A stretch of 64,000 nucleotides of DNA from NCBI GenBank assembly GCA_021163845.1, contig JAGGTH010000078.1, positions 2,607-66,606 of the forward strand. The letters are read 5' to 3'. Origin of the DNA: Helicobacteraceae bacterium (GTDB lineage Bacteria; Campylobacterota; Campylobacteria; Campylobacterales; Sulfurimonadaceae). Position 1 is the first letter of the stretch, and each line of letters opens with the position of its first letter. The notes under the pieces were generated by a model, which saw only the letters and a list, made by a program, of their open reading frames with translations, made no database searches and had not been told where the DNA came from. A program made the translations under genes and the position numbers. Positions 2,857 through 34,271 of the stretch are shown piece after piece.

Positions 2857-2890
2857 ATGTAACCTTTTTGTAGCCAAGAATACCTACAAT
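2857..2890 (+). promoter_or_regulatory. Pho-box-like direct repeat plus -10 element
   Basis: TGTAAC (2858) and TGTAGC (2869) are 11 bp apart; 10 nt later comes TACAAT (2885-2890). Confidence 0.6.
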
Positions 2891-2919
2891 TTTCAAACTT
2901 ATTAAAAGGCAGAGAATCA

Positions 2920-3663
2920 TTGAAATATAAAGCACTCTTTATTTCAGACATCCACCTAGGAACAAAGTTTTCTCAAGCAGAAAAACTTCTCGAATTTCTC
3001 CGTGATTATGAATCCGAAAAACTCTATCTCGTCGGAGATATTATCGATGGTTGGTCGATCAAACGTAAATTTAAATGGTCACAATCCAATTCCGATGTGA
3101 TCCAAAAGATACTTCGAAAAGCGCGAAAAGGGACAGAGGTGATCTATATTACGGGAAACCATGATGAGTTTTTACGCCCCTTTATTCCTATTTTAATGGG
3201 GGAACGGCTTACTATTACAAATAGTCACATCCATACAACACAAGACGGCAAACGCTACTATGTGACCCACGGCGACTTTTTTGATAGCATCACTATGACC
3301 AAAAAATGGGTCACCTATCTTGGTGATGTAGGCTACGATATGCTTTTACACCTCAACAAATACATCAATAAATTGCGCAAAATCTTAGGGATAGGCAAGT
3401 ACTGGTCGCTCTCAAAGTATGTCAAAGATAATGTCAAAAAGTCGGTAAGTTTTATTACAGGATTTGAAGATATCTTGGCAACTCATGCGCAAAAAGAGGG
3501 TTTTGATGGTATCATTTGTGGGCATATTCACAAAGCTGAAAATAAGATGATCGACGGGATCCACTATCTCAATTGTGGAGATTGGGTAGAAAATTGCACC
3601 GCAGTCGCTGAGGGAGAGGATGGAGTATGGGAGATAATCCAACTACAACCAAATCAACACTAG
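2920..3663 (+). CDS. LpxH-like metallophosphoesterase, PlcP-type phospholipase C candidate
   Basis: Motifs FISDIHLG, LVGDIIDGW, QKILRKARKG, GNHDEFLR, HGD, YWSLS, CGHIH and NCGDWVENCTA match the PlcP/UDP-2,3-diacylglucosamine hydrolase-like subfamily as I recall it; TTG start. Confidence 0.8.
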   Translation: MKYKALFISDIHLGTKFSQAEKLLEFLRDYESEKLYLVGDIIDGWSIKRKFKWSQSNSDVIQKILRKARKGTEVIYITGNHDEFLRPFIPILMGERLTITNSHIHTTQDGKRYYVTHGDFFDSITMTKKWVTYLGDVGYDMLLHLNKYINKLRKILGIGKYWSLSKYVKDNVKKSVSFITGFEDILATHAQKEGFDGIICGHIHKAENKMIDGIHYLNCGDWVENCTAVAEGEDGVWEIIQLQPNQH

Positions 3664-4403
3664 AGATAGCACTTGCTCTCTCAGGTGGAGCTGCACGTGG
3701 CTCTTTTCATTTAGGCTTTATCGAAGCGCTACAAGAAAACAATGTGCGCATCAAAGCGATCAGCGGTACAAGTGCTGGTGCCATTGTTGGAGGGGCCATT
3801 GCTTGTGGTCTCAAACCTCGTGATGTACTTGAAGTTATCAAATCTAGAGCATTTCGTCGTATCTTTCGCTTCAACTGGTTTCGAAGTAGCCTCTACCGTA
3901 TCGATACACAAGCTCCTATTCTTCAAACCATCTTTCCTCTTGAAAAAATTCAAGAGACTCGTATCAAACTTTTTGTTTGTGTGAGTGATCTTAACAGTAA
4001 TGAAGTGGTCTATTTTCAAAGAGGAGATGGGAAAAAACTCATCACTGCTTCGTGTGCACTTGTTCCCCTTTTTGCCCCTATAGAATTTTATGATTCAATA
4101 CTCGCCGATGGTGGGATCAAGGATATGCTTCCAACCACTCCTCTTTTGGAGTGTGGCTATCCAATCCTTGGGATCAATCTCGTCCCCAATATCTTGCCGC
4201 AAAAGCGCAATATCTTTTCTCTGAGTCGCCACATTATCCATATCTTACTCTCGTGTAAAGTTCCCGAACATATCAAGCATACACGCTGGTATGTCTCACC
4301 TGATGCACTCGAGAGTATTCGGATGTTTTCTTTTAAGGATCTTGATAAGGGGTTTGAGCTGGGCTATCTTCATGGCAAAGCGTGGTGCGATGAAAATTTA
4401 TAA
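3627..4403 (+). CDS. Patatin-like phospholipase
   Basis: LSGGAARG, GTSAG (catalytic Ser) and DGG motifs; exact start uncertain because it overlaps the upstream gene. Confidence 0.9.
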   Translation: MGDNPTTTKSTLEIALALSGGAARGSFHLGFIEALQENNVRIKAISGTSAGAIVGGAIACGLKPRDVLEVIKSRAFRRIFRFNWFRSSLYRIDTQAPILQTIFPLEKIQETRIKLFVCVSDLNSNEVVYFQRGDGKKLITASCALVPLFAPIEFYDSILADGGIKDMLPTTPLLECGYPILGINLVPNILPQKRNIFSLSRHIIHILLSCKVPEHIKHTRWYVSPDALESIRMFSFKDLDKGFELGYLHGKAWCDENL

Positions 4404-4426
4404 GTAATATAGGGTATAATTGCACT

Positions 4427-6573: not shown

Positions 6574-6576
6574 GTC

Positions 6577-7800: not shown

Positions 7801-7808
7801 AGAAACTC

Positions 7809-8831: not shown

Positions 8832-8838
8832 AACCAAA

Positions 8839-9892: not shown

Positions 9893-11704
9893 CTATTTTT
9901 TTGGTAGATTCATAAAAATATCTCTTTCATCTTGACCCTCAGAGTTATCAACGCTTCGGATACTACTTGTAGTCCCTATAAACTGATTAACTGCAGTAAG
10001 GTTTCCATTGCTACTAATATCAAATACATGCCATACATCGTTGTAACCAGAAGAACCTGCAGGTGCGGTAAATGTTCTTGATATCCCTGATGCAGTAGTT
10101 ACATTAACAACCGCAGGAGACTCCGAAATAGTTGAACTACCGCTAAAATGATGTACATAAAAACTATACACACCGCTTTCGACACGACAAATTGTTGTTG
10201 TTTCAGGTCCATAACTTGATACATCATCTAAGTCGAGTGCCGCTATCACATTTTCATTTGCACAAGGGTTTGATGCATTAAAATCTCCAAGCATCGGATT
10301 ATAATAACCCATTATTCCGTTTGTTGTATGATATTGATTGTAGTATGCAATATGAAATCTATTCCCACTTGCATTTTCACCCGCTAAAGTCACATTTGGT
10401 CCAGTAAGATGTGAATCAAGATCACTTGGAGCGGCTCCCCAAGTAAGCTGAATTGTTGCAAAAGCATTTGCACTATTATAACCACTAATGGTACTAAAGA
10501 TAGACAAAGTAGGTGCTTCATAACTATCTGCTACTCCATAGGAATAAACAGTCATATAGTTTGTAGAATATCCATCAAATGTTGCACTAGCGGTATATAC
10601 ACCCGCAGCTAAACTTACATTATAGACTCCGTCTGCATCTGTAGTTGTTGTTGCAACAACATCACCTGTTCTATTATTCGCATTTGCCCTAAAAGAGAGT
10701 GTTACCCCCTGAAGTGATTCTCCAGATCTAGCATCTATAACAGTTCCTCTTACTTCTCCACTACCACTCATAGTATCTGGTATCATCACAACTGTACCTA
10801 CCGAAGTATTTGTAAATGTAGAAAAATTATTACGAATAGCGCTTAAATAACCCTCTGCCTCAATACGCACAGTATAGACTCTAAATAAAGGAAGCTCTTC
10901 ATAAATAAACAATCCCTCTTGGCTGGAACTTGCAGTGTACTCATCACCATTTGTACTTGTAAAAGTTATAGTAGCCCCATTTATTGGACCTCCCAAAAGA
11001 CTATTTAACGTACCACTCACTCTCGTAGTAGCATCTGCTGTAATATTTGCATCATTAAAGGTATTAAGAACTTCATCATCTAAGCGAATAACAAGGTCAT
11101 CATTTTCGATTTCTATATCAAGTGCGTCTAAAAGAGCATCATAGCCTGTGTGATCAGCTGTAAATGAATCTCTAAAGTGATCAAAGCTTGCAACATTTTC
11201 TGCAGTCATATAAGGCGCCAATGCACTATTTAGCTGGGTAACTACGGGATCTACATTAGCGATGAGTGTACTCTGATTGGCAAAATCACTGTAGAGTTCT
11301 GAAACACCCGCAAGATTGCCTTGTGTTGCCACTGTATCAAGCACATAAGATGTCAAAGGTGTAACATTTGTAACTATACCATCTGTTTGTGCAAAGGAAA
11401 AAAGAACAATCCCATCTTCCGTCGAAGCTCTCACAATGTAAGGAGCTGTCAAGCCTGTCAGACTCGCCCTGTACTCACCATTACTATTACTTGTAGTGGT
11501 ACTTTCTATACCATTGGCACCAACAACAGAAATCTCGGCCTCAAGCGGTAATCCAACCGCAACAGTACCCCCAATTTGACCAGCTGGAACCACAACTGTG
11601 TCTCCACCATCATCAGGAATGGCAGTCGTATTATCTGAGTCAGAACCACAGCCTTGAAAAATAAGTGCTACTACAACACTCAATATTAAAAGATACTTCT
11701 TCAT
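9893..11704 (-). CDS. Surface lipoprotein with carboxypeptidase-regulatory-like beta-sandwiches and a C-terminal YfaP/DUF2135-like domain
   Basis: Lipobox IFQGC; T(T)D.DG.Y-type beta-sandwich repeats; WGAAPSDLDSHLTGP and LDDVSSYGPETTTI motifs; T/A-ending codon style unlike the neighbouring genes. Confidence 0.75.
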   Translation of the reverse strand: MKKYLLILSVVVALIFQGCGSDSDNTTAIPDDGGDTVVVPAGQIGGTVAVGLPLEAEISVVGANGIESTTTSNSNGEYRASLTGLTAPYIVRASTEDGIVLFSFAQTDGIVTNVTPLTSYVLDTVATQGNLAGVSELYSDFANQSTLIANVDPVVTQLNSALAPYMTAENVASFDHFRDSFTADHTGYDALLDALDIEIENDDLVIRLDDEVLNTFNDANITADATTRVSGTLNSLLGGPINGATITFTSTNGDEYTASSSQEGLFIYEELPLFRVYTVRIEAEGYLSAIRNNFSTFTNTSVGTVVMIPDTMSGSGEVRGTVIDARSGESLQGVTLSFRANANNRTGDVVATTTTDADGVYNVSLAAGVYTASATFDGYSTNYMTVYSYGVADSYEAPTLSIFSTISGYNSANAFATIQLTWGAAPSDLDSHLTGPNVTLAGENASGNRFHIAYYNQYHTTNGIMGYYNPMLGDFNASNPCANENVIAALDLDDVSSYGPETTTICRVESGVYSFYVHHFSGSSTISESPAVVNVTTASGISRTFTAPAGSSGYNDVWHVFDISSNGNLTAVNQFIGTTSSIRSVDNSEGQDERDIFMNLPKK

Positions 11705-12069: not shown

Positions 12070-12125
12070 TTGTAACTTTATTGTCACCAAGTCGAAACAT
12101 AAGCGTAATAAACTCTTTTTATACT
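12070..12125 (+). promoter_or_regulatory. Pho-box-like array (4 half-sites) plus -10 element
   Basis: TGTAAC 12071, TGTCAC 12082, CGAAAC 12093 and CGTAAT 12104 at 11-bp period; 10 nt later TATACT (12120-12125). Confidence 0.7.
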
Positions 12126-12153: not shown

Positions 12154-14253
12154 ATGACATCAAAGAAAAAGATAGCACTAAGTGCGCTCGTAGCTGCAAT
12201 GGTTGCCTTTACAGGTTGTGGAAGCAGTAGTAGTGGAGATGATACAACTACACCAACAACGCCAACTGAGCCTACAACACCGACTGAACCAACTACACCG
12301 GTTGAGACAAACTCAACAATGTTCACAGGAACATCAGCAGAGACACTTCAAGCAAAATTTGATGCTCAAAGTGATGTAGTGTATCCTGCTCTTGCAAAAG
12401 AAACTATTGCGAGTATCATCAGTACTGACACAACTCTTACGAATGATAAGATCTGGATCATTGATGGTTTAGTAACAGTTCAAAGTGGTGCTACACTTAC
12501 AATCGAGCCAGGTACTGTTGTTGCTGGTAAATATGGTACTGCTGATAATTCAAGTTATATGGTAATTGATGCTGGTGCTAAGATCATGGCTGATGGTACA
12601 GCTGATGCACCAATTATATTCACTTCTGAAAAAGCTGTTGATGGTGAAACGCCTGCTGTTGGTCAATGGGGTGGTTTAACTCTTATTGGTAACGCTGGAA
12701 ATGATCAAGTAAAACCTTATGAAGTAAATGAAGATTTCGTCGCAGGTACTTCTGATATGGCTGACAACTCTGGTGTACTTCGCCATGTTAAAGTATTAAA
12801 CTCTGGTATCACTATGGCTGAAGATAAAGAGATCAATGGTTTAAGCTTTGTTGGTGTTGGTTTTGGAACTACTGTTGAAAACATCACAGTTGATCTCTCA
12901 GATGATGATGGTATTGAGCTTTGGGGTGGTACTGTAAACCTTGCAAACATCACTATCTCAAGATGTACAGATGATCACTTCGACTTTGATGATGGATTCT
13001 CTGGGCTTGTAACAAACCTTGTTATTAACAACACTATGGGAAATGCTGGTATTGAGATGTCAGGTAACACTGCTGCTACAATTGATGGATTCAACATCAC
13101 TATGACTGATACTGCTAAAGAGGGTGGTATCTATTTCAAAGGTACTGGTATTGGTGGTACTCTTAAAAATGGTACAGTAACTTATATGGTTCCTGATAAT
13201 GGTTATGGAGCTATCCACTCTAACGATGTTATTGATGCAGATAATACTTCTTTTGAAAATGTATCCCTTGTAACAAATAGTGCTTCTCAAAATATTACAG
13301 GAACATCAGCAGAGACACTTCAAGCAAAATTTGATGCTCAAAGTGATGTAGTGTATCCTGCTCTTGCAAAAGAAACTATTGCGAGTATCATCAGTACTGA
13401 CACAACTCTTACGAATGATAAGATCTGGATCATTGATGGTTTAGTAACAGTTCAAAGTGGTGCTACACTTACAATCGAGCCAGGTACTGTTGTTGCTGGT
13501 AAATATGGTACTGCTGATAATTCAAGTTATATGGTAATTGATGCTGGTGCTAAGATCATGGCTGATGGTACAGCTGATGCACCAATTATATTCACTTCTG
13601 AAAAAGCTGTTGATGGTGAAACGCCTGCTGTTGGTCAATGGGGTGGTTTAACTCTTATTGGTAACGCTGGAAATGATCAAGTAAAACCTTATGAAGTAAA
13701 TGAAGATTTCGTCGCAGGTACTTCTGATATGGCTGACAACTCTGGTGTACTTCGCCATGTTAAAGTATTAAACTCTGGTATCACTATGGCTGAAGATAAA
13801 GAGATCAATGGTTTAAGCTTTGTTGGTGTTGGTTTTGGAACTACTGTTGAAAACATCACAGTTGATCTCTCAGATGATGATGGTATTGAGCTTTGGGGTG
13901 GTACTGTAAACCTTGCAAACATCACTATCTCAAGATGTACAGATGATCACTTCGACTTTGATGATGGATTCTCTGGGCTTGTAACAAACCTTGTTATTAA
14001 CAACACTATGGGAAATGCTGGTATTGAGATGTCAGGTAACACTGCTGCTACAATTGATGGATTCAACATCACTATGACTGATACTGCTAAAGAGGGTGGT
14101 ATCTATTTCAAAGGTACTGGTATTGGTGGTACTCTTAAAAATGGTACAGTAACTTATATGGTTCCTGATAATGGTTATGGAGCTATCCACTCTAACGATG
14201 TTATTGATGCAGATAATACTTCTTTTGAAAATGTATCTATCGTAGTTGAGTAA
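12154..14253 (+). CDS. Secreted beta-helix-type lipoprotein with two identical domains
   Basis: Lipobox AFTGC, PTTPTE linker; each domain has IEPGT, PIIFTS, GQWGG, DNSG, EINGL and DDGIELWGGTVN motifs typical of lipoproteins encoded beside TonB-dependent receptors. Start moved to the ATG after GGAG. Confidence 0.8.
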   Translation: MTSKKKIALSALVAAMVAFTGCGSSSSGDDTTTPTTPTEPTTPTEPTTPVETNSTMFTGTSAETLQAKFDAQSDVVYPALAKETIASIISTDTTLTNDKIWIIDGLVTVQSGATLTIEPGTVVAGKYGTADNSSYMVIDAGAKIMADGTADAPIIFTSEKAVDGETPAVGQWGGLTLIGNAGNDQVKPYEVNEDFVAGTSDMADNSGVLRHVKVLNSGITMAEDKEINGLSFVGVGFGTTVENITVDLSDDDGIELWGGTVNLANITISRCTDDHFDFDDGFSGLVTNLVINNTMGNAGIEMSGNTAATIDGFNITMTDTAKEGGIYFKGTGIGGTLKNGTVTYMVPDNGYGAIHSNDVIDADNTSFENVSLVTNSASQNITGTSAETLQAKFDAQSDVVYPALAKETIASIISTDTTLTNDKIWIIDGLVTVQSGATLTIEPGTVVAGKYGTADNSSYMVIDAGAKIMADGTADAPIIFTSEKAVDGETPAVGQWGGLTLIGNAGNDQVKPYEVNEDFVAGTSDMADNSGVLRHVKVLNSGITMAEDKEINGLSFVGVGFGTTVENITVDLSDDDGIELWGGTVNLANITISRCTDDHFDFDDGFSGLVTNLVINNTMGNAGIEMSGNTAATIDGFNITMTDTAKEGGIYFKGTGIGGTLKNGTVTYMVPDNGYGAIHSNDVIDADNTSFENVSIVVE
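12325..14237 (+). repeat. 941-bp direct repeat (12325-13265 and 13297-14237), period 972 bp
   Basis: Protein halves are identical; antisense ORFs 12717-12953 and 13689-13925 are identical; unique 31-bp spacer at 13266-13296. Confidence 0.95.
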
Positions 14254-14285
14254 CTCTTTGCTTTAATAAATTCTTCCTTCTTTAA

Positions 14286-14326: not shown

Positions 14327-14382
14327 TTGTCACCAAATTGTAACTAAAGAGTAACTTTGTTGTAATCCCAATTTTATAGACT
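14327..14382 (+). promoter_or_regulatory. Pho-box-like array (4 half-sites) plus -10 element
   Basis: TGTCAC 14328, TGTAAC 14339, AGTAAC 14350 and TGTAAT 14361 at 11-bp period; 10 nt later TAGACT (14377-14382). Confidence 0.75.
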
Positions 14383-14409: not shown

Positions 14410-15174
14410 ATGACCATGTCAAAAACAAAACTCAGTATACTCCTAAGTGTCTTGCTTAGTTGCTCAAGCGCTCAGGCAAGCTCGCAAAACCTAGTCGAAT
14501 CACTTATGAAATTACGTGCGGATGTAGAACGCCTTGATAGTGCTATCGTCTCTGAAAAAGAGGATTATAGTGCAACTATACGATCACTCATGCGCCAAAA
14601 AGATGATCTTAGTTCTGTAGTTGCACGTGAAGAACTTAGTATCAAACAAACTCGCCAAGAGCTTGATAAAGTACGCAAAGAGATAACCGAGGCTTCTAAA
14701 AACTCTGAAGGTCTCAAGCCCCTTTTACTTGAAGCTATAGAGAGACTTCAGGCAAATATCCAAAGCTCTCTCCCTTTCAAAACAAAAGCGCGTCTCGCAG
14801 ATCTTGCTAAAACAAAAGAGCAGATCGAGACAGACCTCATCACTCCACAAAAAGGTCTTGCACTGATCTGGAACGCTTACACAGATGCAATGCGTATGAC
14901 AAAGGAGAATGGTCTATTTAAACAAACAATCTCCCTCAACGGAGAAGACAGACTTGCAGAAATAGCTCGTGTGGGAACGATGATGCTTTTCTTTAAGACA
15001 CCTGATAACCAAGTAGGCTACGTAGAAAAAGATGCAAATGGCTACAGCTACCGTGAAGCACAAACAAAAGAGAGCCAAGAGCAGATACTCTCCCTCTTTG
15101 ATGCCTTTAAAAAGCAGATCAGAACAGGGTACTTTACCCTCCCTGATGCGATTCTTTCAATGGAGACAAAATAA
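14410..15174 (+). CDS. DUF3450-like periplasmic coiled-coil protein (TtpB-like)
   Basis: Signal peptide, coiled coil, LPF..ARL and RVG motifs; first gene of a TonB2-type operon. Confidence 0.7.
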   Translation: MTMSKTKLSILLSVLLSCSSAQASSQNLVESLMKLRADVERLDSAIVSEKEDYSATIRSLMRQKDDLSSVVAREELSIKQTRQELDKVRKEITEASKNSEGLKPLLLEAIERLQANIQSSLPFKTKARLADLAKTKEQIETDLITPQKGLALIWNAYTDAMRMTKENGLFKQTISLNGEDRLAEIARVGTMMLFFKTPDNQVGYVEKDANGYSYREAQTKESQEQILSLFDAFKKQIRTGYFTLPDAILSMETK

Positions 15175-16484: not shown

Positions 16485-16485
16485 G

Positions 16486-17091: not shown

Positions 17092-17485
17092 AAACAAAAA
17101 AACGGATGAGCTTGGCGTAGATATGTCGCCACTTATCGATATGGTTTTTATCCTGCTCATATTTTTTATGGTGAGTTCTACTTTTGTTAAAGATATGAAG
17201 TTAGACCTCAACCGTCCAGGTGCATCTTCGGCGAGCAAAGCATCTAGCAAAGTAGTGCGTGTGTATATCGATCAAGCAGGTGATACCTATGTGGACAATC
17301 AGCCTGTCAAAGTATGGGCGATTCAAGGGCGTCTTCGAGATCTCCTTCGTGCCTCTACAGAGCAATCGGTACTTGTGATCACAGACAACACTATTCCTGT
17401 AGATAAACTGATCGAAGTGGTCGATCAGTGCCGTATGGCTGGGGCAAAAGATGTTGCCGTGGCAACTGAAAAAGAGGTTGGATAA
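17081..17485 (+). CDS. exbD: ExbD/TolR biopolymer transport protein
   Basis: DMSPLIDMVFILLIFFMV. Confidence 0.92.
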   Translation: MRFRNKKTDELGVDMSPLIDMVFILLIFFMVSSTFVKDMKLDLNRPGASSASKASSKVVRVYIDQAGDTYVDNQPVKVWAIQGRLRDLLRASTEQSVLVITDNTIPVDKLIEVVDQCRMAGAKDVAVATEKEVG

Positions 17486-17486
17486 G

Positions 17487-18113: not shown

Positions 18114-18125
18114 AAAGAGTACAGA

Positions 18126-22438: not shown

Positions 22439-22446
22439 AGAACATA

Positions 22447-22499
22447 GTTACAAGAGACGAACCTCTTGTAACCAAAGTGAAATACAAAAGATTTAAAAT
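22447..22499 (+). promoter_or_regulatory. Inverted repeat overlapping a Pho-box-like site, plus -10 element
   Basis: GTTACAAGAG/CTCTTGTAAC 10-bp inverted repeat; TGTAAC 22467 and TGAAAT 22478; 10 nt later TAAAAT (22494-22499). Confidence 0.6.
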
Positions 22500-22528: not shown

Positions 22529-23212
22529 ATGCACGAGCAAATAGTTATCGTAGATGATGATAATGATATTTTAGAACTTCTCGAATACAATCTCTCAAAT
22601 GCAGGTTACGAGGTAATGGGCTTTGTAGATACCAAACATGTACGCCGTGTGCTCAGTGAAGAGAAAGTTGATCTCATCATTATGGATCGTAACCTTCCTG
22701 ATATTGAGGGGAGTCTCTATATTGAGATGCTTAGAAGTAAAAATATCAATACGCCAGTGATCTTTCTCTCTGCAAAAAATTCACTTCAAGATGTTAAAGA
22801 GGGTTTCATACGTGGTGCAGATGACTATATTACAAAACCTTTTGATCTTGAAGAGCTTCTTTTACGCATAAAAGCTGTTCTCTCACGTTACAAGCAAGAT
22901 GAAGTAGACCAAAAAGGTCTTGTGCGCTATAGAGACCTTGAGCTCGATCTCAATAGAAACTATGTAAAGATCAATGGTGCAAACGAAATCGCTTTGACAA
23001 AGCTCGAGTCAAATCTTCTTCAAGTTATGATTCACAATAAAGGAAAAGTACTCGATAGAGACTTTTTGATAAAACAAATATGGAAAGATACTGATCATAT
23101 TAACCAAAAGACAGTGAATGTCGCTATGAAAAGACTCAAAGAAAAAATCGATCCCTCACGTCAAAAAGAGTATATAAAAACTATAAGAGGGGTGGGCTAC
23201 CTCATCCCCTAA
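22529..23212 (+). CDS. OmpR/PhoB-family response regulator (PhoB/PhosR-like), no adjacent kinase
   Basis: VDDD, IMDRNLP, LSAK, GADDYITKPF and winged helix ending KTIRGVGY. ATG 22529 lies downstream of the predicted -10. Confidence 0.9.
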   Translation: MHEQIVIVDDDNDILELLEYNLSNAGYEVMGFVDTKHVRRVLSEEKVDLIIMDRNLPDIEGSLYIEMLRSKNINTPVIFLSAKNSLQDVKEGFIRGADDYITKPFDLEELLLRIKAVLSRYKQDEVDQKGLVRYRDLELDLNRNYVKINGANEIALTKLESNLLQVMIHNKGKVLDRDFLIKQIWKDTDHINQKTVNVAMKRLKEKIDPSRQKEYIKTIRGVGYLIP

Positions 23213-23292
23213 ACACTCACGAACCTCGTGCAGACTAAAGCCTGTGTAACCAAAGAGATGCTATACTCATTTTATTTTTTAAGGCTCTTTGG

Positions 23293-25085: not shown

Positions 25086-25610
25086 TTACTCTTCATTGAG
25101 CGGCACCACTTTATAAAGCAACGCATCCTCCTCTGCAAAATCAATATGTACAAGATATGACGAAGCAGCATTATTCCCCTCCCCACTTTGCGCATAAACA
25201 CGAAAACCCTTTACCTCGCCCAAGGACTCTCCAAAAAAATCACTATCACTCTCTAAAGGATAGTTCTCAAACGGACGTAAAGATTCTAAACGGTAAAGCT
25301 CTTTGTCTTTTTTGATATATGCCACATAGGGATGTATACGTCCGTAGAGGGAGTTATTTGTCTGCATGAAGACGACATCCTCATCTTTATTTTGATTGAG
25401 AATCTTGACAGAGTTGTAGTGCGCAAGGGTAAAATCTAGATACACCGTCTGCTTTTTTTTCAGATAGCTCCCAAGCTCTTGTGATTTTTCTGCAAAGAAA
25501 TTGTTGGTGACATGAAGTTGGGCATAACTTTTGTACAAGAACAAAACCATAATTGAGAAGATAACGATCGAGACCATCATCTCCATGAGAGTAAAAGCAT
25601 TGTGTTTCAT
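25086..25610 (-). CDS. T2SS minor pseudopilin, GspJ-like
   Basis: Prepilin motif AFTLMEMMV. Confidence 0.75.
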   Translation of the reverse strand: MKHNAFTLMEMMVSIVIFSIMVLFLYKSYAQLHVTNNFFAEKSQELGSYLKKKQTVYLDFTLAHYNSVKILNQNKDEDVVFMQTNNSLYGRIHPYVAYIKKDKELYRLESLRPFENYPLESDSDFFGESLGEVKGFRVYAQSGEGNNAASSYLVHIDFAEEDALLYKVVPLNEE

Positions 25611-26065
25611 GGAACGCGCAACCTCAAAATAGAGGCATTACTCTTTTGCTCAAAAAGAAGTGAGGTTTTGCCTATCTCAAAAACCATACTTGCTTGATTT
25701 TTCTCTTTTTGATCCTCTTGATACTCATCAGGAGCATCCTCTTTGACATCAAACTCACTCATATCTAGAGTATAGAGTTCATTGTAAGCTATTTTGAGCT
25801 TGATGGTTTTGAGCTTTTTTCGCAACGCATCTTCGAGATCATACCCCTCAAGCAAGCGATCCATATCAAGTGAATCACTCTCAAAACCATATTTTTTATT
25901 CGCTACCAAAAAACTAAGATAACCATTTGACTCCATCTCTTGGACACTCTTCGTATAGATAAAACTACTATTACCATTCATGGTGTAGAGCGCCATCACA
26001 ACAGTGGAGATGATCAAGACACTTATCATCACCTCTATGAGAGTAAAACCCTCTCTCTTAGCCAT
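25607..26065 (-). CDS. T2SS minor pseudopilin, GspI-like
   Basis: Prepilin motif GFTLIEVMI. Confidence 0.75.
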   Translation of the reverse strand: MAKREGFTLIEVMISVLIISTVVMALYTMNGNSSFIYTKSVQEMESNGYLSFLVANKKYGFESDSLDMDRLLEGYDLEDALRKKLKTIKLKIAYNELYTLDMSEFDVKEDAPDEYQEDQKEKNQASMVFEIGKTSLLFEQKSNASILRLRVP

Positions 26066-27581
26066 GACTTAGCCCGATACGAATCGCCTCATCCAAAGAG
26101 GTCTCTCCTTTGAGCAGATAATATTTAAGTTGTGTGGCGATTGTTTTGAGCCCTTCTTTTTCAAGGGCTTCTCTTATGCTATGCTCATCTGTTGTAGTTT
26201 TGAGCAGATTTTTAACACTATCGCTCATAACAAGAAGCTCTCCGATGGAGCGACGTCCTGCGTATCCACTGTAGCCACATTTTCTACACCCACAGGCTTT
26301 ATAGATCTTGGCATCAAGTGGGAGGTCATAATCTTTTGAAAACTCTTCAGCGAGAATATCTTCTTCTTTACACTCTTCACACAGCACACGCAAAAGCCTT
26401 TGTGCCAAAATACCTAAGAGTGAGGAGCTGATCAAAAAGGGTTCGATCCCCATATCTGCAAGGCGCGAGATGGTCGCCGCTGCTGAGTTGGTATGTAGCG
26501 TTGAAAACACCAAGTGTCCCGTGAGTGCTGCACGCACAGCGATATTTGCTGTCTCTTCATCACGGATCTCCCCGATCATAATAACATCTGGATCTTGACG
26601 CAAAATAGAGCGAAGTGCCGCGGCAAAGGTAAGCCCCACTTTTTCATTTACTTGGATCTGTGCGATCGAATCTGATTTGTACTCTACAGGGTCTTCAACG
26701 GTGATGAGATTTTTATCAGGGGATTCTACTTCACGCAAAAAAGAGTGAAGAGATGTGGTCTTTCCACTCCCTGTTGGTCCTGTAACCAAGATGATCCCAT
26801 GAGAAGCACGCAAGAGTTTACGAATATCACCGATCACATCTTCATTAAAGCCAAGCTCTGTGATCTGGGGGATCTGAGAGCTTTGCATCAAAAGCCTCAT
26901 AACCACACGCTCCCCATAGAATGTTGGCAAGATAGAGACCCTTACATCCAAGGTCTCTCCAGCTATTTTGATCTGCGTTCGTCCATCTTGTGGGATACGC
27001 TTTTCTGAGATATCAAGGTTTGAGATAACCTTGATACGACTCACGATAAGAGCGACCACTTTTTTATCAAGGTCTGCATTTTTAATGAGCATCCCATCGA
27101 TCCTAAAGCGAACTTCCCCTTTTTTCTCTTGTACCTCTATGTGAATATCTGATGCTTTTTTCTTGATCGCTTGATAAAAAAGAGCGTTGACGAACTTGAT
27201 AATAGGAGCTGATTCTTCACTTGTTAAGATATCGCTGCTTGTACGCAAAAAATCTGTGAGGGAGATATCCTCTTCATTTTGCTCTTGGTTCTCCTCTTGC
27301 ATACTCTCCATAGCTCTGTCTGTACGGAGCTCTAAAAAGCGGTTGTAGAGTCTCTCATAAGAGTCTTCATCAACAAGGCGCAAAGGGTAGCGCTCTGGAA
27401 GCTTGGTATAAAAGTTACTCGCTTCTATTAAGTAACGCTCACACGCAATCGCACTGATCTCTCCCTCTATGCGAGAAAAAAGCAGATAGTTCTTTGTTAA
27501 AAGATCACTTGCAAAACCCTCAAGCTCACAAACCTCTAACTCTAGATCATGAAGCGGTTCTAACTCTAGCATCTTACTCAC
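26058..27581 (-). CDS. gspE: T2SS ATPase
   Basis: ASDIH, RIPQDGR, TGPTGSGKTT, VEDPVE, LRQDPD, GEIRD, TLHTN and CxxC pairs. Confidence 0.95.
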   Translation of the reverse strand: MSKMLELEPLHDLELEVCELEGFASDLLTKNYLLFSRIEGEISAIACERYLIEASNFYTKLPERYPLRLVDEDSYERLYNRFLELRTDRAMESMQEENQEQNEEDISLTDFLRTSSDILTSEESAPIIKFVNALFYQAIKKKASDIHIEVQEKKGEVRFRIDGMLIKNADLDKKVVALIVSRIKVISNLDISEKRIPQDGRTQIKIAGETLDVRVSILPTFYGERVVMRLLMQSSQIPQITELGFNEDVIGDIRKLLRASHGIILVTGPTGSGKTTSLHSFLREVESPDKNLITVEDPVEYKSDSIAQIQVNEKVGLTFAAALRSILRQDPDVIMIGEIRDEETANIAVRAALTGHLVFSTLHTNSAAATISRLADMGIEPFLISSSLLGILAQRLLRVLCEECKEEDILAEEFSKDYDLPLDAKIYKACGCRKCGYSGYAGRRSIGELLVMSDSVKNLLKTTTDEHSIREALEKEGLKTIATQLKYYLLKGETSLDEAIRIGLSHG

Positions 27582-29457
27582 CCTCTAGCCGAATAATCTG
27601 TGTGCCCTTTGGGGTCTCTAGCTCCTCTGAAGCTTTTTTAAATTCACCTTTTTCAATCTCTTCAAAAATAATATCATTATATTTTTGTTGCAAATTTGCC
27701 AAAACTCCTAGCTCTCTTTGAAGCTCTGAGAGTTTTTCACTTTTATCTACGATATAAGGTGTCAAAATCACGACTAAATTACTCTCCTCTACCGAAGAAC
27801 TTCTTGAACTAAAGAGCCACTCCCCAAGCCAAGGAATATCACCAAGCAAAGGTACTTTAGAGATATTTTCAGACTGTGTATTTTTCACCAATCCACCAAT
27901 AATAATATTTTCACCATGTCCTAAAATTGCTTGTGTTTTCACCTCTTGCTTGGACGTGATCGGTTGTTGACCTGTTGAAGCATCTCCATAATCATCTACC
28001 CCTTCCATGATCGCTTCAACATTCAAGGTCACCTTATCTGTAGAAGAAACACGTGGTTTGATCTTTAAAGTAAGCCCCACATCCTCACGTTTATAACTAT
28101 TTGTCGTTCCTGGAACAGATGTCGCACTTGAAGTTACACTTCCAGTGGTGATAGAGATCGTTTGCCCCACATAGATAGAGGATTCTTGATTATTCACACA
28201 CAAGATAGAGGGATTTGAGACCAGCTGTGAAGCACCTTTCTTTTCTAAGAAGTCAAGTGCAGCACCGAGCGCAAAACCAGCTGTTATATCACTACTACTC
28301 CCTGTAATCTGCCCTGTTAGAGCACTTCCTACGATCCCTTGAACAGGTGCACCACCAAAATTCGTAGCTAAAGAGTAGAGCCCATCTGTTGTTAAAAATG
28401 CTCCGTCGAATCCATAACGAATTCCTATATTTTCTGCATCACTATTAAATATATTGACTATGCGCGCTTTGACGTACACCTGAAACTTCTCTTTATCAAG
28501 CTCATCAATAATAAGCTTGATCCCACTGATCACCGATGGGTCCCCTACTGCTATGACACCATTGATCTCTTCGCTTGCAGAGATATTTGGCTTGAGAGAA
28601 GGATCTGCAAAAGTTTGCTTGGAGATAATATCATTGAGACTTGCCACCACTGAGGCCACATCTGAATTTTTGAGTATAAAGATCTGCACTGCCTTGTTTG
28701 CGATCTCTATATCCATCTTCGTGATAAGCTCCTCTATCTTTTCAACATTTGCCTCTTTACCTACAAGAACCAAACTATTAGAGTTTTCATCAAGGACGAT
28801 CTTGACCATCTCACCATCTACTTTTTCGTTAAATAAAGATTTAGAGATATCATTCAAACGCGCTTGGAGTTTTTTGATCTCTGTATATTTGATAGGCACA
28901 AGCTTTACAATATTTTTGTATTTTGCATCGATTTGAACGATCACTTTTTTGATCGTTTCTATGTTCTTAGGATAATCTGTAATGAGGATCGCGTTCGTCT
29001 CTTTCATCGTCATCAACTTTGCAGCAGTTGAGAGTAAATAGCGAATCTTTGCCGCAACTATATCAACGTTTTCCCACTGTACATCGATCACTTGTGTCGT
29101 CATGAGTGCACCATTGACGCTTACCCCAGTTTTTTCCACCTTATAAGTACTTTTTGCCGCATCGTTGGAGCGTACCACTTCATACATCGAGCCATTTTCT
29201 ATAAGTGTAAACCCTTTGGACTCAAGGACTGAGATCAGTATATCCATAAGCTCTGTATCGTACACAGGAGCAGAACTCACCATATCGACACTTCCTGTTA
29301 TCTTGTGGGTAATAAGTATATTTTTGTTTGTGATCTTACTGACCAGACGAACAAACTCATCGATCTCTAGGTTTGAAAAGTTAATATTAACCTGCTCTTT
29401 TGCTCCTAGTGTTGCAACCAACACAAGTGCTACGAATATATGCTTAACGAACTTCAT
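27574..29457 (-). CDS. gspD: T2SS secretin
   Basis: N0-N3 domains; GLTLKIKPRV, IIGGL and KVPLLGDIPWLG secretin motifs. Confidence 0.93.
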   Translation of the reverse strand: MKFVKHIFVALVLVATLGAKEQVNINFSNLEIDEFVRLVSKITNKNILITHKITGSVDMVSSAPVYDTELMDILISVLESKGFTLIENGSMYEVVRSNDAAKSTYKVEKTGVSVNGALMTTQVIDVQWENVDIVAAKIRYLLSTAAKLMTMKETNAILITDYPKNIETIKKVIVQIDAKYKNIVKLVPIKYTEIKKLQARLNDISKSLFNEKVDGEMVKIVLDENSNSLVLVGKEANVEKIEELITKMDIEIANKAVQIFILKNSDVASVVASLNDIISKQTFADPSLKPNISASEEINGVIAVGDPSVISGIKLIIDELDKEKFQVYVKARIVNIFNSDAENIGIRYGFDGAFLTTDGLYSLATNFGGAPVQGIVGSALTGQITGSSSDITAGFALGAALDFLEKKGASQLVSNPSILCVNNQESSIYVGQTISITTGSVTSSATSVPGTTNSYKREDVGLTLKIKPRVSSTDKVTLNVEAIMEGVDDYGDASTGQQPITSKQEVKTQAILGHGENIIIGGLVKNTQSENISKVPLLGDIPWLGEWLFSSRSSSVEESNLVVILTPYIVDKSEKLSELQRELGVLANLQQKYNDIIFEEIEKGEFKKASEELETPKGTQIIRLEGE

Positions 29458-30262
29458 AAACTATCTCCATCTCTTGATTATTTCTCATGAATATGATTTG
29501 TACACTTTTAAGCGTATCGATCTTTTCATAGATCGCTATGGCATCTTTGTAGGATGTAAGCTCTACATTGTTTGCTTTGGTAATCAAATCACCTTTTTGC
29601 AAGCCTAGCTTTTCAAAGGGTGAATTTGGCGCAATACGCTTCACCTCAAATCCTACGATCTTCCCTTTTTCTTTACGCTCTTGTATCGCTATTTGCTTCC
29701 ATATCTCTTTTGGGTTTTTTGCATAAAAATTGATATCATTTTTTGCCACTCCCACCGGTTTTGAGATATCTACACTCGGAGTTTTTTTTGTTTTAGTATA
29801 AGAGCGTACAGATTTTTTGCCCTCATACTCCATCTCTAAGATATAGGTCTGAGCACCTTTTTCAAACACTGCACTCTCAAGTTCTATACCTACGAGCTTA
29901 AAACCGCTAAAGGACTCACCAACAGCGATCACTTCAGAATTTTTAGGGCTTGCTTTGAGGGCTATCACCACCACCCCACTCTCCCCTTTGCCATAGAGCC
30001 CTTTGAGGATCATGTTGGTGATACTTATTCCCGCTTGTGAATCGCTTTGTGCATTTGTTGGCTTTTCCTCTTTTGCATACGAGAGCATACTCTCAAAACT
30101 GTAACGAACATAAGGGGGCTGGTAATTCTCACTCTCTTGGTATGACACTCCCTCATGAGGTAAGAACCAGAGCAAAACAAGACTTGAAAGTTTTACCACT
30201 AAAACCAAAACAAGTAACTTGAAGAGATATGTAAAGAGCGATGTCTTAGAGATCTTTTGCAT
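29444..30262 (-). CDS. GspC-like protein with PDZ domain
   Basis: N-terminal transmembrane helix, HR-like region, PDZ motif FEKLGLQKGDLI. Confidence 0.8.
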   Translation of the reverse strand: MQKISKTSLFTYLFKLLVLVLVVKLSSLVLLWFLPHEGVSYQESENYQPPYVRYSFESMLSYAKEEKPTNAQSDSQAGISITNMILKGLYGKGESGVVVIALKASPKNSEVIAVGESFSGFKLVGIELESAVFEKGAQTYILEMEYEGKKSVRSYTKTKKTPSVDISKPVGVAKNDINFYAKNPKEIWKQIAIQERKEKGKIVGFEVKRIAPNSPFEKLGLQKGDLITKANNVELTSYKDAIAIYEKIDTLKSVQIIFMRNNQEMEIVYEVR

Positions 30263-30776
30263 AGCTATACTCCCCAGTTTTCTCTTTTTTTAGATGACGC
30301 AAAGCATGTGCGTACTCTTTTCTCATCTTTGGTGAAGGGTTCATAAAGATCATAACTGTTCTGTTGATGAGATCAAGCTTTCCTGTAAGCTCACCAAAGC
30401 CACCTTTTGCGTAGATATTGACTGCTACGGGGTTAAAGAGATGATAACTCAACTCCACAGATTCTACATCCAAAGGTACAAATGATTTTGCAGCGTGTGA
30501 GAGCTCTATATTCCTAAGTGTCACACTATTGGTGAATACCCAAGGGCTGATTTTGAGCTGCTCAATATTTGCACTCTCGATCCCCTCAAAATAAACCTTA
30601 GCATCTCGGAGTTCAAGTGAAAAGCCACTATCGTGAAGCTTCTCATTTGAGATCACAATTTTAAGAGGTTCAAGCTGTTTCTCAGCCAAGTAAAAGAGCT
30701 CTACTTTTGGAAGAAAAAAGAGCACCATCGCCAAGAAAAAGAAAAGATATCCAAAAAATTTTGCTATTTTTACCAT
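30246..30776 (-). CDS. GspN-like T2SS accessory protein
   Basis: Single N-terminal transmembrane helix (FFLPK) and operon position. Confidence 0.5.
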   Translation of the reverse strand: MVKIAKFFGYLFFFLAMVLFFLPKVELFYLAEKQLEPLKIVISNEKLHDSGFSLELRDAKVYFEGIESANIEQLKISPWVFTNSVTLRNIELSHAAKSFVPLDVESVELSYHLFNPVAVNIYAKGGFGELTGKLDLINRTVMIFMNPSPKMRKEYAHALRHLKKEKTGEYSYAKDL

Positions 30777-31177
30777 TGGATCTCCAATCTTATACGCGCT
30801 TTTTCGTCGCTAATACGTTGCAAGTTTATCTCTTTGATCTCATAGGAGCCATTGAGTATTTTACCCATAAGAGTATTGAGATTGGCAAGGTCAATACTCA
30901 TTGCCGAGATCACCGTATTTTTTTTACTCTCTACCTTATTCAGCTCTACCCCTTTTGCTTGGAGCTGTTTGATAAGCTGATCGAGCTTTGACTGGAGCAC
31001 TTTTTCTTGCGTATAGACACTTTTGATCCCATTGAGGCGAAGTGCGAGCTCACGGGTCTCTTGATAAGAATTTGCTTGCTCTTTATATTCCTCTTTTGCC
31101 TTTGAAAGTTGAAACACACTAAAGAGAAAAAAGATCACCAAAAGCCCTAGGATGTAGAGAGGATTTATCTTATTCAT
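30770..31177 (-). CDS. GspM-like T2SS platform protein
   Basis: Transmembrane helix, coiled coil, small ferredoxin-like tail; operon position. Confidence 0.55.
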   Translation of the reverse strand: MNKINPLYILGLLVIFFLFSVFQLSKAKEEYKEQANSYQETRELALRLNGIKSVYTQEKVLQSKLDQLIKQLQAKGVELNKVESKKNTVISAMSIDLANLNTLMGKILNGSYEIKEINLQRISDEKARIRLEIQW

Positions 31178-32088
31178 AGTTTCACCTCACATACGAGCTT
31201 CTCTTGTGATTTTTTCGCACTCAAATCAAGCCCCTCTTTTTTGAGAATATTTTCTATCTTTTGTGCATTTTTTGTTTGAAACTCTACTATAAGTTTTTCC
31301 CCTTTGAGCTCAAGACTCACAAGTTTTTCATCGCCACTGAGCTTTGGCGCTATCACTTTTGCAATACTCTCACGTATCTTCATCTGTTTTGTATGCAGTG
31401 CTTCATATTTTTTGAGCATCGCTTTGTTTTGCATCATTGTTTGTTTGAGCTTATACTTGCTAAAAAGTTCCTCTTTTTGGCTTTGTATCTGCGAGGCATC
31501 GCTTTGGATCTTATATGCCTGGGCTAAAAACATCACAGCGAGTACAAAGACAGCCACACTCAAACGATAAAAGACCGAGGTATCAACTATATGATGAAAA
31601 AGGGAGAGTTTCACTTTATGTTTTGAAAGCTCTAAGGTCTCTACATCAAGGGGCTCTAAATCCCCAAGCCAAGTTTTTTGTAATACAAGTACGATGTCAT
31701 CTTTGGATATAAGTGCGTGTGTATCAGAGATACTCACAGGGTTTTGCAGTCCTACTAGCTCACTTTGGGCAAAATAAACAGCCTCGACATTGGAACCAGT
31801 AAGACCTTTTTGCTCCATCAATGAGAGGATCTTTTTATCATCATAGGCAAAAGCTATGTAATGATCCCCCTCTTTATACGCTTCATAACTGTAATTTCCC
31901 TCTATGAGGTGCTCTTCAAATAAGGAGGGCAAAAGTTTTTTCACCTCCCTGAGATACTTGATAGGAACACTCAGTTTTTTCACCCAATACAAGGAGGGAG
32001 AGAGGATAACATTCACCTTCTCCTGAGATGTATAAGCATCACTTTCATAGTCCAAAAAGATCGTCTTACACTTAGATTTCGTAAACAA
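31174..32088 (-). CDS. GspL-like T2SS platform protein
   Basis: Cytoplasmic domain, one central transmembrane helix and periplasmic coiled coil; operon position. Confidence 0.55.
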   Translation of the reverse strand: MFTKSKCKTIFLDYESDAYTSQEKVNVILSPSLYWVKKLSVPIKYLREVKKLLPSLFEEHLIEGNYSYEAYKEGDHYIAFAYDDKKILSLMEQKGLTGSNVEAVYFAQSELVGLQNPVSISDTHALISKDDIVLVLQKTWLGDLEPLDVETLELSKHKVKLSLFHHIVDTSVFYRLSVAVFVLAVMFLAQAYKIQSDASQIQSQKEELFSKYKLKQTMMQNKAMLKKYEALHTKQMKIRESIAKVIAPKLSGDEKLVSLELKGEKLIVEFQTKNAQKIENILKKEGLDLSAKKSQEKLVCEVKL

Positions 32089-32986
32089 AATTAGACCCTT
32101 TCTTTGATTTCATATCATATTCGAATACGACACTCGCTTTGAGATCGTTTTGGAACATCGTCACCTTTACAAAAAGTACACTTTCATAAAATGAGATATT
32201 AAAACGCCCAAGCCTCTCTTTTTCAAAATCACTCAGCTCAAAACACTCATAATTACTACACATTCCAGCCAAAGCATAAAGCTGCTCGGCACGTGCTTCT
32301 TCACATCCCAAGAGAAACTTCCAAACCTCAGGCTTTGCAAAATTAAGATCAATAGGAGTGTCTCTATTTTTTGAGTAATAGAAGAGCGAATCAAAATCTA
32401 TTTGCGTATGTGTATTATAACGATATCTGTCACGAAAATAATCATTCAAGTACCCTAGATGTGCTTTTGAAGCGAGATAATCTCGAAAAAGTTTGGGATG
32501 TAGGGTAAAGATATCTGTATTGTAAGAAAAGTCCTCTTTAATACCCATCATCGCATCGAGTAAAAGATCAGCATAGATATAATCAACATTATAGCGACTG
32601 AGATATTCTTTGAAGGTATCAACTCTTTGGATGTTGAAGGTGCTGTTTGTGTCTTTAAAAACATTAGGGTTGATCTTAGAACGTGCAGATTCTATCTCTA
32701 AGATCACCTCCATCTCATTGGTGCTGAGTGGAAGGTAGCCCACTTGAGACAAAAAAACATAGAGCCCCTCACTTGAGTTGCTATCTACGATACTATCGAG
32801 CTCTTTAGAGCTTTTTAAAAGACTCAAAACATCATCTAAAAGTAAACGTGTTTGGAGTAAAAACTTCTCTTTTTGGATATCGCTTGCCATAGAGTTGACA
32901 TGGCGCAAGCCAATACCTACAAGGACCGTAATCGCGATGATAAAAAAAAGGGTAATAAGCAGAGCTATACCGTTTTTACTTCGCAT
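32072..32986 (-). CDS. GspK-like pseudopilin
   Basis: KNGIALLITL N-terminus (class III signal without Glu5), IDLNFA helix-hairpin-helix region. Confidence 0.7.
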   Translation of the reverse strand: MRSKNGIALLITLFFIIAITVLVGIGLRHVNSMASDIQKEKFLLQTRLLLDDVLSLLKSSKELDSIVDSNSSEGLYVFLSQVGYLPLSTNEMEVILEIESARSKINPNVFKDTNSTFNIQRVDTFKEYLSRYNVDYIYADLLLDAMMGIKEDFSYNTDIFTLHPKLFRDYLASKAHLGYLNDYFRDRYRYNTHTQIDFDSLFYYSKNRDTPIDLNFAKPEVWKFLLGCEEARAEQLYALAGMCSNYECFELSDFEKERLGRFNISFYESVLFVKVTMFQNDLKASVVFEYDMKSKKGSNFVYEI

Positions 32987-32989
32987 CTC

Positions 32990-34201
32990 TCACCCTACAC
33001 TCATCGAAAAGATAGGTAAAAGCATCGCGGCAACAATAAAACCGATGCTTCCCCCAACAAAAAGCATCAAAGCGGGCTCTAAGAGGGTAAGTAAAAAAGA
33101 GATCTTGTCGCGATTTTCTTCAAAGTAAAGCTCCGAAACATTGGTAAGCACACTCTCTAATTCCGAGGTCTCCTCCCCAAGAGCAAGCGCTTGAACGAAA
33201 CCAAAATCAACATACTTAGAATCAGCGATCGCCTTTGAGAGCACTTTTCCCTCAACCACCTGACTTGAGGCTTTGACAAACAGTTCTTTGAGTACACGGT
33301 TGTTTAAGATATTGGCACTGAGATTGATCGTCTGCACAAATGGTACGCCAGAACGCACCAAGAGTGATGCCATATAAGCAAAACGTGCAAGCTCACTCTT
33401 TTGCACGATAGCCCCGAAATAAGGCATAGAGAGCACAAATTTATCCACAAGATAGGCAAAAGAGTAGATCTTCTTTTTCGCGATCACAAAGAGCGATACA
33501 CCCACAAAAATGAGAACAAGTAAGAGTTTGTAGTTGTTGTTAAAAAAATCACCCATAGCGATCACGAACTGTGTAGGGCGCGGAAGCTCTTGGTTCATAC
33601 TCTCAAAGATACCCGTGATCTGTGGCACAACAAAGCTAAGCATAAAAGCGATCATAAGCAAAGAGATCACGATCATAAAACCAGGATATGCAAAAGCCCC
33701 TTTTATCTCTTTGGCAATGCGCTCTTGCTCTTTTAAAAAGCGGGAGAGTTCGAGTAAGACTTCATCTAAAATACCTCCATTTTCACTCACTTTAATAGAG
33801 TGTTTGAAAAACTCAGGAAGCTCCACGACACTCTGCTCTTCGAGTGCTGTATAAAAGTTCTTTCCCTCATCGAGATGTGTACCGACAGTACTTAAAAAGA
33901 GTGCGATTTTTTTGTTGTTTTGATAGTGTGTCTGCACGATTTTGATCGCCGAGACGATACTGATACCCGAGCGGATATACATAGAGAGTTCGCGAGAGAG
34001 TGCTGAGAGCTCTTTGGGTGGGATCTTGTAGCGCATAGAAAAAGAGAAATTCTCAAGCAAAGATGCACTCTCTTGTGAAATACTCTGCAATAGTATCTTC
34101 TTTGCTTTTATCTTTGCTTTTGCCTCTTCAAGCGAGGTGGCTTCTACCTTTTGTTTGAGCTTTTTGCCACTCTCATCAATCCCTACATATTTAAATAACA
34201 A
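32990..34201 (-). CDS. gspF: T2SS inner-membrane platform protein
   Basis: Two T2SSF domains (SGISIV..A, AFAYPGF, GEETSEL, LLEPALM); TTG start with GAGGG Shine-Dalgarno. Confidence 0.93.
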   Translation of the reverse strand: MLFKYVGIDESGKKLKQKVEATSLEEAKAKIKAKKILLQSISQESASLLENFSFSMRYKIPPKELSALSRELSMYIRSGISIVSAIKIVQTHYQNNKKIALFLSTVGTHLDEGKNFYTALEEQSVVELPEFFKHSIKVSENGGILDEVLLELSRFLKEQERIAKEIKGAFAYPGFMIVISLLMIAFMLSFVVPQITGIFESMNQELPRPTQFVIAMGDFFNNNYKLLLVLIFVGVSLFVIAKKKIYSFAYLVDKFVLSMPYFGAIVQKSELARFAYMASLLVRSGVPFVQTINLSANILNNRVLKELFVKASSQVVEGKVLSKAIADSKYVDFGFVQALALGEETSELESVLTNVSELYFEENRDKISFLLTLLEPALMLFVGGSIGFIVAAMLLPIFSMSVG

Positions 34202-34238
34202 TGCACCCTCATTCTTACGTCAAATTAACTTCTTTGAA

Positions 34239-34271
34239 ATACTAAATCATTTTTGTTACCGAAGCGTTACG
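34239..34271 (-). promoter_or_regulatory. Pho-box-like repeat plus -10 element upstream of gspF
   Basis: Minus strand CGTAAC (34271-34266) and GGTAAC (34260-34255); 10 nt later TAGTAT (34244-34239). Confidence 0.55.

Follow-up and report, generated by a model that had tools for sequence, protein, structure and literature searches.

The DNA considered here is a 64,000-nt stretch (the window) from a Helicobacteraceae bacterium of the family Sulfurimonadaceae, whose closest named relatives are Sulfurimonas and Sulfurimonadaceae metagenome-assembled genomes (MAGs). It covers positions 2607–66606 of contig JAGGTH010000078.1 (C3 in our numbering of contigs) in a genome of 2.24 Mb and 39% G+C. Promoters in this window carry repeated motifs that are very probably classical PhoB-type Pho boxes, and these outline a predicted phosphate regulon in which a kinase-linked PhoB paralogue, encoded on contig C18, is the likeliest primary binder. 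An earlier sequence-only reading of this DNA had placed such motifs at six positions and proposed that the response regulator encoded at 22529–23212 controls itself and all of the associated genes. On rereading, the half-site and TAnnnT coordinates are exact at all six places, and the genes that follow have the identities proposed earlier. As Pho boxes the sites are partly confirmed, and the interpretation given to them is partly supported: two claims, the membership of a type II secretion system (T2SS) and the identity of the regulator, need trimming.

A Pho box is expected to consist of at least two direct-repeat 11-nt units, in each of which seven positions are conserved and the other four less so, and to which PhoB effector domains bind head to tail (PMC4415409). 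Head-to-tail 11-bp repeats with a conserved core of 6–7 nt and a less conserved, AT-rich spacer of 4–5 nt are indeed observed at the window promoters (Table 1). Across 24 half-sites from 10 promoters of this genome, G2 is invariant, T3, A4, A5 and C/T6 are strongly conserved, and the spacer is A-rich. The promoter-proximal unit ends 10 bp 5' of the −10 hexamer, an exact gap that is seen at all five window sites as well as upstream of pstS, a porin gene, the PhoX gene and the genes on contigs C50 and C17 described below; at the phoBR-like site on C18, the gap is 11 nt. With this exact spacing between the last core and the −10 hexamer, the box occupies the −35 position.

In each box, 11-bp units thus follow one another head to tail; their core is TGTAAC, and TGTCAC is accepted too. 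In the proposed mechanism, a phosphorylated PhoB-family regulator would, under low phosphate, occupy the units as tandem dimers and recruit RNA polymerase. The predicted regulon would comprise, outside the window, pstSCAB-phoU, a phoB/phoR-like operon, a phosphate-selective porin, PhoX, a conserved protein beside a di-haem enzyme (C50) and a paralogue of the window lipoprotein (C17). Inside the window, it would include a PlcP-like phosphoesterase with a patatin, a beta-helix lipoprotein, an ExbB-ExbD-TonB motor with its receptor, and an orphan PhoB paralogue. What is shown here is the motif, its geometry, its genome-wide specificity, its conservation and the gene content, whereas binding, induction by phosphate limitation, the paralogue responsible and the imported substrate are inferred.

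Table 1 Boxes, half-sites and genes discussed in the text (window positions unless a contig is named).
Feature	Position	Strand	Remarks
Pho box, 2 half-sites: TGTAAC 2858, TGTAGC 2869; 10-nt gap; TACAAT	2858–2890	+	Phosphoesterase/patatin promoter
LpxH-like metallophosphoesterase	2920–3663	+	Candidate PlcP-type phospholipase C; Pfam Metallophos
Patatin-like phospholipase	3627–4403	+	Overlaps phosphoesterase gene; Pfam Patatin
Pho box array: TGTAAC 12071, TGTCAC 12082, CGAAAC 12093, CGTAAT 12104; 10-nt gap; TATACT	12071–12125	+	Lipoprotein promoter
Lipoprotein, 703 aa	12142–14253	+	Two identical parallel beta-helix domains, PF28492; family and predicted model
Pho box array: TGTCAC 14328, TGTAAC 14339, AGTAAC 14350, TGTAAT 14361; 10-nt gap; TAGACT	14328–14382	+	TonB/receptor operon promoter
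TonB/receptor operon, seven genes	14410–22438	+	DUF3450, ExbB-like (436 aa), ExbB, ExbD, TonB, TPR, TonB-dependent receptor (1055 aa); Pfam
Pho box: TGTAAC 22467, TGAAAT 22478; 10-nt gap; TAAAAT	22467–22499	+	Orphan response regulator promoter
Orphan OmpR/PhoB-family response regulator, 227 aa	22529–23212	+	Clade A; PhoB paralogue; phospho-acceptor residues intact
Lone half-site TGTAAC, 11 nt before TATACT	23245–23272	+	Precedes genes for a 132-aa protein and an S8 subtilase; Pho box doubtful
Type II secretion operon	25086–34201	−	GspF, four unassigned proteins, GspC-like PDZ, GspD secretin, GspE ATPase, two pseudopilins; Pfam
CGTAAC 34271, GGTAAC 34260; 10-nt gap; TAGTAT	34239–34271	−	Upstream of gspF; weak
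PhoR-like kinase	C18:25897–27291		Two membrane spans, ~125-aa periplasmic segment

The genome was scanned on both strands for adjacent pairs of units with an 11-column matrix trained on 14 half-sites from the window only. With this matrix, the pstS promoter ranks second genome-wide and first outside the window, as the sequence-only reading had anticipated. Its site, TGTAAC-CAAAG-TGTAAT followed after 10 nt by TAGAAT, lies 63 nt ahead of pstS, with which a pstSCAB-phoU operon begins; this operon was located independently through TIGR00972 and the PhoU family. Further intergenic matches with a correctly placed −10 hexamer are found upstream of the C18 operon, which encodes the best PhoB match and an adjoining histidine kinase, a Porin_O_P protein (a phosphate-selective porin, C68), a widely conserved protein adjoining an MbnH/MauG-like di-haem enzyme (C50), and a 426-aa paralogue of the window lipoprotein (C17). 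The sole PhoX-family phosphatase gene (C84) is preceded by six in-phase 11-bp units (TGTAAC, TGTCTC, TGACAT, TGTTGC, TGTCTT and TGTAAC, in order), 10 nt and TATCAT, at C84:3849–3925; it is absent from the pair-scoring matches because its inner units are degenerate. Family searches found neither PhoD nor PhoA in this genome. Predicted boxes at these hallmark genes (pstS, phoBR, porin and phosphatase) of the same genome, together with the conservation in relatives described below, support the earlier proposal that PhoB-type boxes outline a phosphate regulon.

The specificity of the matches was assessed by scoring each promoter with a matrix from which it had been left out. The four strong window promoters then score 17.0 bits (phosphoesterase), 18.8 bits (lipoprotein, best dimer), 20.7 bits (TonB operon) and 19.5 bits (regulator), and these scores are equalled at only 7–13 of 4.47 million genome positions. 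The corresponding values elsewhere are 23.1 bits for pstS, 19.4 for phoBR, 18.4 for the porin, 18.6 for C50 and 16.1 for C17. Placement of the −10 hexamer is also informative. TAnnnT is found at exactly +10 in 7 of 32 intergenic dimers outside the window, and at each of 15 other offsets it occurs in 0–3 of the same dimers (mean ~1). Dimer matches are 27% intergenic, compared with an intergenic share of 7.8% for the genome.

The boxes also recur in related genomes (designated by G numbers). A protein search at E≤1e-40 returned six pstS orthologues, a small number because most relatives carry another PstS type. A box with an identical gap precedes four of them, two of these being from other families; in one of the four, the cores are TGTCAT and TGTCAC, as in Escherichia coli. 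All eight related TonB operons that were found have in-phase half-sites upstream. In seven, a gene-adjacent array of 3–4 half-sites ends with its last core 10 nt before TAnnnT, and the eighth (G011) has a box of two half-sites, again with this gap, ~250 nt upstream of the match. The lipoprotein box is kept at orthologues in G012 and G014 and is also seen at paralogues, in G014 and in the genome studied here (C17). For the phosphoesterase, a box of the same geometry precedes all four full-length in-genus orthologues, two of which have four units, and none was found at five orthologues from other families. The orphan-regulator box is kept in all six in-genus genomes with a stand-alone gene; three named MAGs, whose orthologues have 89, 82 and 74% identity, show upstream of them TGTAAC-N5-TGA(A/T)A, 10 nt, and TACAAT or TAAAAT. 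These results support predicted Pho-box control of the TonB/receptor operon, the lipoprotein, the lipid-remodelling pair and the regulator gene, each of which had been assigned to the regulon from the window sequence.

In the complete related genome G012, within 20 kb (C1:2394500–2414400), the lipoprotein (here triple-domain), the TonB operon, the receptor, a clade-B and a clade-A regulator (see below), pstSCAB-phoU, a clade-C regulator and a kinase are contiguous, with five boxed promoters. This contiguity ties the receptor island to phosphate acquisition.

Two PhoB-like regulators of this genome, which encodes 18 OmpR-type regulators, have a predicted Pho box at their own promoter. One is the orphan regulator of the window, which has no adjacent kinase. 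The other is the C18 regulator, whose gene overlaps that of a 464-aa kinase with PnpS and PhoR as its best families. The two regulators are 52% identical, and their recognition helices are nearly alike (TVNVAINRLKEKIDP versus TVNVAMKRLKEKIDP); that of E. coli PhoB reads TVDVHIRRLRKALEP at the same place. Across relatives, PhoB-like regulators fall into three clades with the same recognition helix. Clade B (the C18 type) is found in nearly all relatives. Clade A (the orphan type) lies on the TonB-operon contig, ~7–8 kb from the first gene, in G001, G005, G014, G021 and G023, and in G012 it is the second gene past that of the receptor, the clade-B regulator being the first. Clade C lies 3' of pstSCAB-phoU and is accompanied by a kinase in G012; it is absent from the genome studied here, and in G019, where it follows pstSCAB-phoU, no kinase was identified.

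The best surviving alternative is the one put forward from the window sequence, in which the regulator at 22529–23212 is itself the Pho master, autoregulates and directly drives all boxed promoters. This protein indeed combines a strong, conserved box at its own promoter with intact phospho-acceptor residues, a PhoB-like recognition helix, PhoB models as its top NCBIfam matches, and physical linkage to the boxed TonB/receptor island in relatives. However, it is an orphan, whereas the C18 paralogue is the better match to the PhoB model (189 bits, rank 1, versus 161 bits, rank 5), is linked to a PhoR/PnpS-like kinase and has a box too. Clade A occurs in only ~10 of 24 in-genus genomes. In four genomes, the clade-A gene is the second of a tandem pair, directly behind another PhoB paralogue; in three of these (G001, G012 and G014) the box precedes the upstream paralogue, and the pair in G022 abuts a contig end. 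Furthermore, G019, which is 99% complete, has no clade-A gene yet carries boxes at pstS and pstC, so that the orphan is not needed for a box at pst. The window regulator is thus unlikely to be the regulator of the whole set, and primary binding is more probably the role of the kinase-linked C18 paralogue. For its part, the orphan is probably a Pho-controlled, second-tier co-regulator, with similar specificity, of the receptor island that it always accompanies, although sequence alone cannot separate the roles of the two paralogues or tell which of them binds, or whether both do. More tentatively, the Sulfurimonadaceae might route phosphate signalling through two to three PhoB paralogues sharing one box type, the orphan travelling with a mobile-looking island. 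In this feed-forward arrangement, the canonical PhoB would turn on the orphan, which in turn would drive or tune import of a phosphorus compound through the outer membrane; we regard this scheme as possible, with doubts outweighing confidence.

Several observations weigh against reading the motifs as classical Pho boxes under a PhoB/PhoR-type system. No regulator reaches the PhoB cut-off (TIGR02154, 296 bits), and the C18 kinase scores 157 bits against a PhoR cut-off of 334 (TIGR02966). Below these thresholds, PhoB, PhoR and PnpS are nevertheless the top-ranked families for these regulators and this kinase. The C18 kinase has a ~125-aa periplasmic segment between its two membrane spans and no recognised PAS domain, a layout by which its sensing mode may differ from that of E. 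coli PhoR. Dimer counts alone are only mildly enriched, ~2.5-fold (6 versus 2.3 at ≥17 bits outside the training region, relative to first-order Markov genomes), and significance therefore rests on location, −10 offset and conservation. Two high-scoring dimers, at C84:917 and C39:968, are wrongly oriented beside unrelated genes. Their neighbours encode a U32 peptidase and a collagen-like protein, and an ABC-2 transporter and a sulfotransferase; both dimers point away from any gene and were treated as chance matches of the kind to be expected. Finally, two of the motifs in the window are themselves weak. With the T2SS promoter omitted from the matrix, its site falls to 6.7 bits, a value reached by 532 genome positions. 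The half-site at 23245 belongs to a dimer of 9–10 bits at best, with an unconvincing second half.

Some of these points would also fit an OmpR-family regulon that answers a non-phosphate signal, such as iron or envelope stress, the likeness to Pho being generic to winged-helix regulators. The number of OmpR-type regulators, the failure of all of them to pass the PhoB cut-off, and the usual iron regulation of TonB-dependent receptors are consistent with this. However, the best independent matches of the matrix belong to genes typical of Pho regulons (pstS, phoBR-like, phosphate porin and PhoX), G012 has the island adjoining pstSCAB-phoU, and the geometry equals that of E. coli phoA, which together make a non-phosphate regulon very improbable. 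Chance similarity of AT-rich promoters with no common regulator is barely credible: the modest excess of dimers over Markov expectation would allow it, as would a T2SS site within chance range, but the −10 offset peaks sharply at +10 on independent sites, the left-out promoters rank among the top 7–14 of 4.47 million genome positions, and motif, unit number and spacing are kept across orthologous promoters with diverged flanks, so that chance is contradicted for four of the five promoters; only at the T2SS site and the half-site at 23245 does it remain a viable explanation.

Neither of these two sites is convincing as a Pho box. The T2SS had been counted in the regulon. Upstream of gspF, no box was found at 13 in-genus and 6 further orthologues, where gspF abuts the preceding gene. 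Since all 19 orthologous loci lack a box, the T2SS promoter was dropped from the confident regulon; its site is probably not a conserved Pho box, whereas a Pho-regulated, Hxc-like system would be expected to have a credible, conserved one upstream of the secretion operon. Since GTAAC is nearly the reverse complement of GTTAC, half-site-like matches occur at 34255–34290 on either strand, and a good match on the plus strand, TGTAATCAAAA, points at no gene. Ending 100 nt upstream of gspF, on the minus strand (34301–41860), is the gene for a protein of 2519 aa that contains LVIVD repeats as well as cadherin domains and could be secretion-system cargo. For the lone half-site at 23245, the coordinate and the 11-nt gap to TATACT are exact. 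As a Pho box, however, it lacks a credible second half-site, and it is kept only in the closest relative, as TGTTAC. With no second unit and an 11-nt gap, it was dropped from the set.

The TonB operon has the gene order of a TonB2-type cluster (DUF3450, large ExbB-like, ExbB, ExbD, TonB, TPR), which matches that of the Vibrio cluster (DUF3450-ExbB-ExbB-ExbD-TonB-TPR) and is the same in G012; its receptor is TIGR01782-like. In relatives, orthologues of the lipoprotein are encoded upstream of the TonB operon and contain one, two or three domain copies. The lipoprotein family, PF28492, carries only the name "hypothetical". A model built from a 50-sequence alignment shows a right-handed parallel beta-helix (predicted local distance difference test score, pLDDT, 86; predicted TM-score, pTM, 0.87), and many acidic residues are invariant in this alignment. 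A fold search with the model returned generic parallel beta-helix matches, such as tailspikes and pectate lyases, at TM-scores ≤0.4. Because these matches are only generic, the lipoprotein was left without an assigned function; sequence searches of the PDB found nothing for it or for the C50 and C17 proteins. Together, the lipoprotein, the private TonB motor and the large receptor are most simply read as a system that would capture a phosphorus-containing substrate and import it across the outer membrane.

The island resembles phosphate-regulated TonB-dependent and SusCD-like receptors (e.g. PMC8115612) in its large receptor, upstream surface lipoprotein and predicted induction by phosphate stress. 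Unlike SusCD-like systems, its lipoprotein is a parallel beta-helix protein of PF28492 and is not SusD-like, and unlike known Pho-regulated uptake systems, the module carries its own PhoB paralogue. The lipoprotein gene contains a perfect tandem duplication with a 972-nt period (324 codons) at window positions 12325–14268, reported as 100% identical over at least 300 nt; the two protein copies are 99% identical. The duplication reflects either a recent change in copy number or an effect of assembly. On the minus strand (9893–11704), immediately before the lipoprotein promoter, lies the gene for a 603-aa protein with carboxypeptidase-regulatory-like domains, for which no box was found.

A role in turning over phospholipids during phosphorus stress would suit the phosphoesterase/patatin pair. 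In marine heterotrophs, plcP genes are preceded by a predicted Pho box, and lipid remodelling is PhoB-controlled (Sebastian et al. 2016, PMC4796936). As in that system, the LpxH-related metallophosphoesterase gene in the window follows a predicted Pho box. It differs in having no adjacent glycosyltransferase or other synthase of non-phosphorus lipids, its partner being a patatin-like lipase. The best NCBIfam matches of the phosphoesterase are LpxH models, below cut-off, and the PlcP name is a candidate assignment based on the Metallophos fold and these sub-threshold matches.

Two further genes outside the window were associated with boxes. In the C50 region (C50:161–3558), a strong box lies upstream of a gene for a 573-aa PF27085 protein, whose highly conserved family has more than 4400 homologues; this protein is a candidate for a new phosphate-starvation function. 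A weaker box with exact geometry (12.5–14.6 bits) is found upstream of a gene for an EAL-GGDEF protein at C18:22037, a possible link between phosphate status and cyclic di-GMP.

How far do these boxes correspond to those of known phosphate systems? The E. coli K-12 phoA promoter, read directly, contains TGTCAT-AAAGT-TGTCAC, then GGCCGAGACT (10 nt) and TATAGT. The window boxes share with the E. coli PhoB box the 11-bp head-to-tail units, the TGTCA-type core and the arrays of at least two units. As at phoA, 10 nt separate the last core from the −10 hexamer, a spacing that is the same to the base, and the box replaces the −35. The predicted gene set corresponds as well, with pstSCAB-phoU, a phoBR-like operon with its own box, a phosphate porin and a phosphatase (alkaline in E. 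coli). The differences from E. coli are several. The core here is mostly TGTAAC instead of TGTCAT or TGTCAC, the main difference being A instead of C at position 4. The regulators score ~160–190 bits with the PhoB model, whose cut-off is 296, and the periplasmic domain of the kinase is sizeable. This genome encodes two PhoB-like paralogues, and some relatives three, with nearly the same recognition helix; a dedicated TonB motor, its receptor and a beta-helix lipoprotein also belong to the predicted regulon.

Within the same phylum, the phosphate system of Campylobacter has been described as non-classical (PMC4415409 and PMC9449129, which cite Wosten et al. 2006). The system predicted here resembles PhosS/PhosR of C. 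jejuni in the predicted control of pstS and PhoX by a regulator of the OmpR family that is paired with a membrane kinase. In C. jejuni, the box of PhosR is reported to be a GTTTC-type repeat, unlike the TGTAAC core of the Sulfurimonadaceae, which is of the classical proteobacterial type. If the PhosR box is as reported, box sequence is not uniform within the Campylobacterota. Full-text literature searches found no paper in which "Pho box" is mentioned together with Sulfurimonas or with any genus of the phylum besides Campylobacter.

Taken together, these results represent a well-supported extension of the textbook Pho mechanism to a new lineage, as judged from its DNA, and the PhoB paralogues with the predicted Pho-controlled TonB island appear to be a modestly novel lead. 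The paralogue system in particular is open to experimental dissection. The predicted regulon gives a phosphate-starvation context to the PF28492 lipoprotein, to the PF27085 protein with its di-haem partner, and to a TonB2-type motor with a 1055-aa receptor. It also provides a base-resolution model of the Pho box for abundant environmental sulfur oxidisers, and suggests that the non-classical box of Campylobacter is not the rule across the phylum.

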